A stretch of 64,000 nt of DNA from Obrimoposthia wandeli (taxonomy: Eukaryota). Position 1 is the first letter of the stretch. The number at the start of each line of letters is the position of its first letter. A program made the translations under genes and the position numbers. This document shows, in pieces, positions 13,318 through 15,310 of this stretch. The notes below the pieces were generated by a model. The model was given only the letters and a program-made list of their open reading frames with translations, made no database searches and had not been told where the DNA came from. The stretch spans positions 434,001 through 498,000 of the forward strand of contig CDROCS010001534.1 in NCBI GenBank assembly GCA_977020255.1. Direction: 5' to 3'.

Positions 13318-15310
13318 ATGAATATAGTAAGAACCTATATATTTTTAATCTTTATTATTTCAGATTACTTGCAACCTGTTCCCGCCGTATTGTGGTGCTT
13401 CGGCTCCACATGGGGGAGAATCCTGTCATACGGTAATGTTCGCATACTATCGGACGAAGTATTATGGGCAGGTGTATTACATCTGCCCGTTCTGAAGAGT
13501 TATCGAGGACAAGGAGTTTCCCGTATTTTTCGCTGATCATCTGGCTCACTTGTCGTGCTTCACTGCCAACAACAATAAGAAGAGCATCATCCTATTTGTG
13601 CGCAATTACTTGAATGGTCGAGCTCCAGTTCCGGCAGAAATTACATTACAGCATGTATTTGCTACAGAAAACACTCCGTCTCTAGCCTGTCCTGTACCTG
13701 TAGTTGATTCATCCACTCAACTCTCAAACAATGACTGGATGAATCAAATCACCCAGCCAGATTTCGAGATGGAGCAGCCTCAGTAAAGCGACAACAGCTG
13801 GTTGGACGACATCGAAAAATCCGAATTCATCGAGTTAACAGACGACAGCTGGATGGATGCTTACAATAAAGAAGACTTCCAACCAGCTACAGTTGGATCG
13901 GCTTCATAAGGTATTTTTTGTGATTTTTTTATGATTTCTTCTTATGATTTTTTTAAATTGTAAATTTAATATACCATATGATTTATTCAGTAAATACCTT
14001 CAGACAATCGATGCCGTCATCAACTATGGCAGCTATACCTCATCCAGCGCAAGTGCCTATATCGATATTCGCACGCCTTAAAGGTTTCAATATTATTTTT
14101 TTAAATATTTCTTTCAGCAGCTGCATCATCGGCTTCTACAACAGTCGCTTTCCGACCTTCCCTGTCAGTAATGTCAGCTTCATCTTCAACGACATCGCCA
14201 TCAGCTACTAGATACTAAGTAACCCCAAACAATTTGTCAGATGCAGCCTCAACATCTGTGCATCAGTCAACTACAGGAGCACCATCGACAAATGGATTTT
14301 TTAATATAAATAGTTAATTTTTCAATCAATTAAGGGGAGGTTTGTCCGCAACAGTATGAAGAAAGAAGCGAGACCAAATTCTTAAAAAGGCCCCACCAAA
14401 AAAACGTAGGTAAAACGGTGCTACTATAGAGTATCACATAAATAATAAATACGTTATAGTTAAGGTGCCATTAGGAAATAAAATTTTATTAAACGGAGGT
14501 GTAGACGCAAATATTGAAAGTCTTTTAAAATCAGAAGTGACTAAATTTGGTCAGGCTAAAGTTCAATTAGGAATCTAAAACTTGGGTAATTTCATATAAA
14601 GCACATATTTTCTATGATAATTTTGTAACTGAAATTGGAAGAAATCTAGATGAAAAAATTGCTAATTATAGTGAGTTAAGTAGTGGTTAGAATCTAGTTA
14701 GAATTCACGATGTTAGCTTTGTTTTAACAAAGTTCACTGACATGATTTATCTTTCGGGGAGTTCATACGTTCCTTTACCTAGATCTTCAACTTTCCCGTT
14801 CCATTGTTAACGTGCAAACCTGTGATAACCTTTGCTTCTTGTATATCGTGTTGGCCATCCTCAAAATGGATGTAATTACTAAGCACAGAGAGCGTGTCAG
14901 TAAATATACCCCTTTTTAAATGAATTGCAGTATCACAGTATAGATTTCACTGTTAAATTAACTGCAATATCAAGATTTGAACACCTTAATATCTTGAGTA
15001 TTAATGTATTCAAATATAATACTGATATCCCAGTTAATGTAATAGATAAATAAATTTTTAAAAACCCTTTCGTATATGTAATTTATAAGAGCAAAAATGC
15101 GGGGACTCCAGTTAATAAACATAATAATAAATTCCACTATACTGCAATTCTCAATTTATCTCGTCTTCTAAATTTAGATAATGGAGCCTTACCGGTTAGG
15201 ATAAGGTGTAAGTGGTGTATCTGTATGAGTGGTCGCTTACTCAACCCCTACCACATACCAACTTTAAGTGGGTGTATGATGAGGAAGAGTTGAATAAGCT
15301 GATGACAATT
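13318..15310 (+). pseudogene. Spliced Zn-finger/acidic leader followed by the N-terminal part of protein-primed PolB (copy A)
   Basis: ATG AAT ATA, then a 37-nt intron (13327-13363), then ITCNLFPPYCGASAPH..YICPF[C>stop]..HLAHLSCF..NDWMNQI..SWLDD. Two further GT-AG introns, then QLRGGLSAT, SG[W], GSSYVP, NVQ..DNLCFL, SINVFKY, HYTAILNLSRLL, RIRCKWC. Confidence 0.75.

Follow-up and report, generated by a model that had tools for sequence, protein, structure and literature searches.

The window analysed here, a stretch of 64,000 nucleotides from Obrimoposthia wandeli, contains three decayed pieces of one polinton family, which we designate copy A (forward strand), copy C (reverse strand) and copy B. 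The family belongs to the alpha-type polinton (adintovirus) lineage, and every copy in the window is a broken, dead relic. Copy C occupies 34969-44919, is delimited by terminal inverted repeats (34969-35009 and 44879-44919), and retains integrase, ATPase-like, core-protein and PolB remnants. Copy B starts at 47429 in the window, likewise has terminal inverted repeats, and holds PolB, adenain and capsid remnants. For copy A, homology with C runs from about 11680 to 15310, and a search of this copy for an inverted repeat found none. No 6-bp target-site duplication is present around C, whose flanks differ, although this carries little weight for a decayed copy. The family assignment is accompanied by a retroviral-type integrase in C (36579-37349; rve E 1.1e-06, below the curated cut-off) and a protein-primed PolB of PF03175 type (38966-39718; E 6.2e-18). 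A candidate double jelly-roll capsid in B stays below cut-off (PF21738 E 0.0055), and a candidate packaging ATPase has a Walker A motif seen by eye (35064-35330). Identity between A and C is only about 76-88%. Copies B and C, which are mutually inverted, are 96.6% identical across 2080 nt (37902-39979 and 48471-50548), and A is far less close to C.

Several other features share the window with these copies. Coiled-coil-rich ORFs on the forward strand (24539-28156, 30153-30512, 32664-32987, 34455-34730, 46087-46356 and 52723-52893) look like exons of one host gene, in which case C and B would sit in its introns; an apparent host intron of about 75 nt lies near 30104-30178. Decayed retrotransposon pieces are found at 1087-7725 (forward), with a reverse transcriptase (E 2.3e-29) and an ORF resembling a viral fusion glycoprotein (PF24664, E 6e-06). 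There is a perfect 261-nt direct repeat (56094-56354 and 56754-57014) and a near-perfect one of 121 nt (22712-22830 and 22899-23019). Upstream of copy A, two RING-H2-like ORF pieces lie at 9878-10611 on the forward strand (zf-RING_2 E 9.3e-09 and 1.3e-04). At 11010-11700 (forward), GC-richer blocks between short AT-rich stretches with GT/AG-like ends replace the terminus seen in C and are possibly another multi-exon gene. A basic helical ORF (43533-43892, reverse; about 12100-12210, forward) has no Pfam match, and its motif resembles a SERTA domain. The ORF directly upstream of PolB (42774-43121, reverse; 12640-12930, forward) appears by eye to be DEDD-type exonuclease-like, again with no Pfam match.

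The PolB gene and its leader are preserved in copy A, on the forward strand, as the following features:

13273-13278, forward: TATAAG, a putative TATA-like box lying some 45 nt upstream of the ATG and matched by the same box at the equivalent position in C
13318-13326, forward: exon 1, an ATG micro-exon of 9 nt (3 codons; ATG at 13318)
13327-13363, forward: intron 1, 37 nt, GTAAGA..TTTCAG, phase 0
13364-13910, forward: exon 2, 547 nt, phase-1 end, three in-frame stops
13415-13573, forward: Cys/His zinc-finger-like domain of exon 2 (profile match)
13730-13894, forward: acidic Trp-rich tail of exon 2, after a Pro/Val spacer
13911-13990, forward: intron 2, 80 nt, phase 1
13991-14083, forward: exon 3, 93 nt, open
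14084-14117, forward: intron 3, 34 nt, phase 1
14118-14326, forward: exon 4, an Ala/Ser/Thr-rich linker with an internal Met and two stops before the motif
14327-14344, forward: QLRGGL, candidate protease site, where only the L-x-G-G register fits
14360-14410, forward: basic stretch after the site, a putative NLS
14414-15310, forward: terminal protein (TP) and vOTU region (relatives' profile, iE 8.7e-38), frameshifted, with vOTU Cys and His motifs present and a short polymerase remnant after it

The corresponding features of copies C and B are:

42338-42385, reverse: C exon 1 (42385-42377) and intron 1 (42376-42338, 39 nt), whose end lacks AG and which is stop-free in frame
41840-42337, reverse: C exon 2, with zinc-finger domain (profile match 42287-42126), acidic tail and a frameshift near 42290
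41336-41839, reverse: C first duplicate, with intron 2 (77 nt), exon 3 (87 nt), intron 3 (47 nt) and a frameshifted exon 4
41839-41763 and 41675-41629, reverse: introns of the first duplicate
40746-41335, reverse: C second duplicate, with acidic tail, intron 2 (71 nt), exon 3 (75 nt), intron 3 (47 nt) and the Ala/Ser/Thr-rich exon 4
41168-41098 and 41022-40976, reverse: introns of the second duplicate
40728-40745, reverse: QLGGGL, candidate protease site, 128 residues before the TP loop anchor, where the Q-x-G-G and L-x-G-G registers both fit
38352-40727, reverse: C TP, partial vOTU and polymerase, with an internal deletion, stops and frameshifts and the vOTU His region deleted
47630-50098, forward: PolB of B, running from its exonuclease side as far as the C-terminus and spanning profile positions 331-1169 within 2469 nt, which leaves no room for an intron

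From these features and from comparison with relatives, we consider it probable that the PolB gene encodes a single polyprotein in which leader and TP make up a precursor resembling adenovirus pTP that is trimmed by adenain. As had been predicted, exon 4 reads into the PolB N-terminus through QLRGG-L in A (14327-14344) and QLGGG-L in C (40745-40728), and exon 4 of A is in frame through its motif into the TP region. The PolB of A has an internal deletion and ends near 15310.

The leader exons are predicted to be joined by splicing. Upstream of exon 2 in A, the exon-2 frame contains a stop and no Met, and this exon therefore needs a start that is spliced in. The leader introns of A and C are 81-94% AT, and the exons are 41-55% GC. 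The six phase-1 introns measure 34-80 nt, none of them a multiple of three, and the three versions of exon 3 differ by whole codons only. A tandem duplication of about 640 nt, absent from the original prediction, accounts for introns 2 and 3 being present twice in C. Since composition, lengths, the whole-codon differences of exon 3 and the confinement of profile matches to exon 2 all agree, the intron anatomy appears to be more than chance, and the composition and lengths of introns and exons favour the precursor reading. No intron was seen inside PolB proper, where B covers the polymerase part and A and C the TP-vOTU part. In both A and C an AG lies 18 nt before the Gln codon; as an alternative acceptor it is ruled out by phase. 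In human adenovirus, pol and pTP share a three-codon first exon.

The original prediction had credited two phase-1 introns to C only; they are indeed found there, but A has both. It had also joined the ATG micro-exon to the Cys/His exon in both copies, which the sequence of A bears out, whereas intron 1 of C ends without AG. This defect, together with a stop in A that falls directly before donor 2 (one of the three in exon 2), counts against the precursor reading. So does codon-position bias between A and C: only the zinc-finger core shows it significantly (p 0.033), and the tail, exons 3 and 4 and the start of TP do not (p 0.07-0.46).

It is extremely improbable that the introns are merely AT-rich insertions gained by decaying, dead copies. 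Every copy is broken, and the accessible text of PMC8097293 describes the core ORFs of intact vertebrate Mavericks as intron-free and gene predictors as mistaking insertions for introns, in contrast to the three predicted introns of the PolB gene here. However, intron positions, phases and GT..AG ends are common to A and C (with the exception of the missing AG in C) despite their divergence, seven of the eight introns have canonical ends, and exon 3 has kept its frame.

The leader proves to be a family domain that is fused to PolB in relatives. Five proteins (best E 2.4e-09) were returned when the open part of C exon 2 served as a HMMER query. In one of these, two leader repeats precede TP and vOTU, and its cluster includes a PolB of 1286 residues; the other four are leader-only proteins. 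A separate search with the PolB catalytic piece gave 294 longer proteins, the best 120 of which served as relatives, and a domain profile was built from the five first matches. By this profile, the Cys/His domain occurs once or twice at the N-terminus, in one intron-free ORF with PolB, in 14 of the best 120 of 294 relatives; P0126 is a further leader-PolB fusion. A second-round profile made from relatives only, with the window sequence excluded, matched the six frames of the window exactly twice, in exon 2 of A and of C (iE 4.7e-10 and 6.7e-11). In a tree of 66 listed relatives of at least 1000 residues plus the window piece, one clade of 41 rows (100/95) holds all 14 domain-bearing relatives and the window PolB, and the other 26 rows lack the domain (among the matches listed). 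Many clade members start near TP, which may reflect truncation, splicing or a missing leader. The one-ORF fusions and their placement with the window in a single clade argue for the precursor reading, as does the position of the first Cys, which is residue 3-5 in six relatives with a full domain and residue 6 in the spliced model of A.

The leader appears to be an unclassified zinc-finger family. Its pattern is C-x2-C, 12-13 residues, then H-x2-H, often with an earlier Cys/His group, and a structural model of a relative's finger comprises a helix, a beta hairpin with CxxC and a helix with two His (pLDDT 81-84). No Pfam family matched the leader at cut-off, and an Atlas search with the zinc-finger piece found nothing at 0.9 (best 0.80). 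A fold search of the model against PDB and BFVD gave no match at E 0.001, a result that speaks neither for a new fold nor for a known one; four chains among 48,161 reached Z 2-3, with weak likeness to C2H2 and ARS2/SERRATE. The ARS2/SERRATE finger supplied the top structural rows (Z 3.0, rmsd 3.4, 46 aligned), too weak for an assignment. The helix-hairpin-helix with CxxC and two His recalls C2H2-type zinc fingers, from which the leader differs in its H-x2-H spacing. Word-index searches for longer relatives were blank for the C leader (0 of 126 candidates) and the TP region (0 of 561), which reflects their sensitivity limits, since the HMMER and catalytic-piece searches did find relatives. SUMO-interaction-like cores occur in 5 of 42 leaders among the matches listed, too few to build on.

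These fusions also bear on whether the leader might be a separate upstream gene, akin to the 'Oncoid' ORFs, with PolB starting at the exon-4 Met. A shorter PolB of this kind had been raised as a caveat, and all three versions of exon 4 do keep a Met at residue 13-18, preceded by a purine at -3; this internal Met weighs against the precursor reading. The stop before donor 2 in A and the four short leader-only proteins point in the same direction. However, those proteins come from short contigs (541-1264 nt) and could be truncated, donor 2 is open in both duplicates of C, and the 14 fusions among the best 120 of 294 relatives run counter to two genes. Neither AATAAA nor ATTAAA occurs between exon 2 and TP in the three stretches concerned, which again counts for a precursor, and no LxCxE or CR1 is present in 19 relatives (first 200 residues) or in the two window copies. 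A separate leader gene is very unlikely.

The motif was analysed in 42 relatives: from 121 proteins, 65 had a TP-vOTU junction match, of which 3 lacked the loop anchor and 20 were too short upstream. Defined as (Q/M/L/I)x(GG. or G.G) within 95-145 residues before the TP loop, it occurs in 23 of the 42 among the matches listed, when about 3 are expected, with the qualification that the data had been seen before the pattern and window were fixed, and that a few anchors are misplaced by about 20 residues. The motif of C lies at -128. Elsewhere in these proteins the background rate is 6.9% per window, and shuffled windows gave a mean of 2.1 and a maximum of 8. Counted by clusters among the matches listed, the motif is present in 20 of 36 (70% identity), 15 of 29 (60%) and 6 of 14 (50%). 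The residue at P4 in the 23 motifs listed is Gln in 16, Met in five and Leu in two; 13 are of the GG-x form and 10 of the G-x-G form. Gln-led motifs alone number 16 of 42 among the matches listed (0.0 expected). The motif is found in 11 of the 14 finger-bearing relatives listed. It also occurs outside the leader-bearing clade, including in a named Ischnura protein, and so is more widespread than the finger.

A conserved protease-type glycine motif before TP, as foreseen by the original prediction, thus exists in a wider form than the one proposed. LxGG itself is not conserved (2 of 42 relatives among the matches listed), so that the LxGG claim falls by the condition which the original prediction had itself set, and the conserved form is mostly Q-x-G-G or Q-x-G-x-G. 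The adenovirus protease consensus is (M/I/L)XGG-X and (M/I/L)XGX-G; in its relaxed form P4 can also be Gln or Asn, and adenovirus pTP has a Gln-led site (PMC4246237, accessible text); the mavirus protease cuts both forms, GG-x and Gx-G (PMC6048507, accessible text). As both forms are present, the adenovirus protease is a better match for the wider motif than for LxGG. The predicted leader-linker-TP-polymerase precursor, matured by a viral protease, is in this way supported by the fusions (14 of the best 120 of 294 relatives, and P0126) and by the motif, but not by LxGG.

The motif supports the precursor reading through its enrichment, its excess of Gln-led forms, the existence of proteases that take both forms, and its place in the linker. 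In the model of one relative (P0103) it ends a low-confidence linker (residues 118-156), with the first TP strand following closely at residue 160, and residues 160-293 form the TP fold, with four to five strands and two helices, ahead of vOTU. The TP region of the window matches the relatives' profile. In A and C an NLS-like basic stretch comes after the site; in several relatives it comes before. Against the precursor reading stand the post hoc pattern, the low count at 50% identity, and the 19 of 42 relatives among the matches listed, including three of the 14 Zn-bearing ones and P0003, whose windows lack the motif; by eye, P0126 has none either. A strict M, I or L at P4, which A and C both have, is found in only 7 of 42 among the matches listed (2.7 expected), and this too counts against it.

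These absences, some of them in Zn-bearing relatives, would also suit a leader that stays fused and is never removed, with the glycine motif serving only as a flexible hinge before TP, and the disordered linker of the P0103 model is what a hinge would call for. We consider this quite unlikely, given that a hinge would neither hold P4 to Gln nor alternate between just two protease forms.

If the motif is a cleavage site, as the precursor reading proposes, two enzymes encoded by the element might act on it. The relevant features on the virion side are:

50357-50650, reverse: copy B adenain-type cysteine protease with His, Asp, Gln and Cys motifs (score 0.97, PF00770 clusters)
37893-38102, forward: partial adenain in C
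36133-36243, forward: stretch of C resembling the pX core protein, in which QNGGF at 36169 precedes an amphipathic peptide (Adeno_PX E 0.055, below cut-off)

The adenain in the window has no direct Pfam match. PF00770 is found in 14% of members of its 0.97 clusters and in 62% of a further cluster at 0.93, and the match to ASFV S273R is weak (E 0.59). That the element encodes an adenain, as first proposed, is borne out by B and in part by C; what survives of A showed no protease gene. The QNGG of the pX-like protein supports the precursor reading, and QGGSG occurs in another core-region ORF, in B.

The second enzyme is the vOTU protease domain inside PolB, which the original prediction had overlooked. 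Its catalytic Cys and His are kept in all 46 aligned relatives among the matches listed, and an [LIV]xG motif at the TP-vOTU junction, where the last TP strand ends, is found in 38 of 46 (again among the matches listed); both results favour the precursor reading. In the window this junction lies at about 14750-14775 (forward) and 40270-40295 (reverse), where a ubiquitin-tail-like sequence is a candidate vOTU cut. The glycine motif might also be cut by this domain, or by a host deubiquitinase or SUMO protease, within the same spliced polyprotein. The LRGG of A equals the end of ubiquitin, and the invariant Cys and His are present in A as well. The vOTU has moreover been proposed as an active protease, though the accessible text of PMC11161782 puts its cut between TP and vOTU and not in front of TP. 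With 10 of 23 sites among the matches listed being G-x-G with no diglycine, LxGG in only 2 of 42, and a Q-led motif also in a virion core protein, cleavage of the motif by vOTU or a host enzyme is quite unlikely. The presence of both forms at one position suggests instead an adenain-class protease and not a diglycine-specific enzyme. Two sites and two proteases would then fit together, with vOTU cutting behind TP and adenain in front of it.

On the precursor reading, the polyprotein would run from the zinc-finger leader through a disordered linker, the glycine motif, TP, the vOTU protease and the exonuclease to the polymerase. In relatives it is a single ORF; in the present lineage, three short spliceosomal introns would interrupt the leader part, leaving PolB proper in the last exon. 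During replication, vOTU might free the TP-containing front from the polymerase, with [LIV]xG as the candidate cut in line with the published proposal. Leader plus TP would stay on new genome ends as the counterpart of adenovirus pTP, and adenain would cut at (Q/M/L)xG(G/x) after packaging and yield the mature TP. Both the order of these cuts and the packaging of leader plus TP are what we infer.

What the leader does is a matter of speculation. Most likely, though tentatively, it may bind nucleic acid or a host partner in replication or packaging. The idea that it resembles an acidic transactivator draws on a tail with 15-16 Asp/Glu and three to four Trp in 43-54 residues, and such an acidic stretch with aromatics is real. 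However, a comparable patch is seen in only two of 14 Zn-bearing relatives among the matches listed, which indicates that the Trp-rich acidic tail is lineage-specific, and with LxCxE and CR1 both missing the likeness is weak. It is unlikely that the leader is a zinc-finger transcription regulator, borne by the virion on genome ends and released by the protease to activate viral genes in the next infected cell, a scheme that would include an E1A/VP16-like function within the TP precursor and splicing able to make a leader-only form. As a separate observation, residues 1-200 of the Ladona dragonfly adintovirus PolB (P0105, DAC81291.1) contain eight matches to [DE]HxY, presumably the HCF-1-binding motif of VP16, which hints at transcription-related motifs in other adintovirus PolB leaders.

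The TP-vOTU-PolB arrangement, adenain and pTP processing are already known, and the leader and its site form a real and apparently undescribed variant of this known system. Polinton TPs have only recently been placed inside PolB, and a conserved site at the front edge of TP predicts a second cut, by adenain, which would make leader plus TP a likely forerunner or counterpart of adenovirus pTP. The site supplies an exact, testable peptide, and for the polinton protease it gives a consensus led by Gln. Furthermore, where the leader is spliced, single-ORF annotation can overlook the true start of PolB. A leader finger, a pre-TP site or a spliced PolB is absent from the accessible text of PMC11161782, PMC8502044, PMC10748475, PMC8097293 and PMC12721341, and likewise from that of bioRxiv 10.1101/2024.03.25.586562, 10.1101/341131 and 10.64898/2026.10.13.758929. 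More generally, the accessible literature yielded no description of this leader or its site.

Among known systems, polinton and adintovirus pPolB (Krupovic et al. 2024, PMC11161782; Starrett et al. 2021, PMC8502044) share the TP-vOTU-exonuclease-polymerase order, the catalytic Cys and His and PF03175, and the catalytic piece from the window is 42% identical to the Ladona dragonfly adintovirus PolB. The protein described here differs from them in its extra zinc-finger leader, which is split by introns, and in its pre-TP motif, neither of which is mentioned in the accessible text of those two papers. Some adintoviruses have separate zinc-finger genes (bioRxiv 10.1101/2024.03.25.586562, accessible text). 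The adintovirus 'Oncoid' or E1A-like ORFs, as the accessible text of PMC8502044 describes them, resemble the leader in lying upstream of PolB and in having CxxC and an acidic stretch, whereas the leader has no LxCxE or CR1 and is fused to PolB. The mavirus protease is likewise of Clan CE and makes GG-x and Gx-G cuts, but its substrates are the capsid protein and probably MV13 (PMC6048507, accessible text), unlike the polymerase here. Adenovirus pTP, which is made from a spliced message (PMC11304566, accessible text), offers a likeness in the N-terminal extension on TP, the xGG-x and xGx-G sites and the Gln at P4 (PMC4246237, accessible text). In adenoviruses, however, TP is a separate gene and the vOTU in the polymerase is inactive, whereas here TP lies inside PolB.
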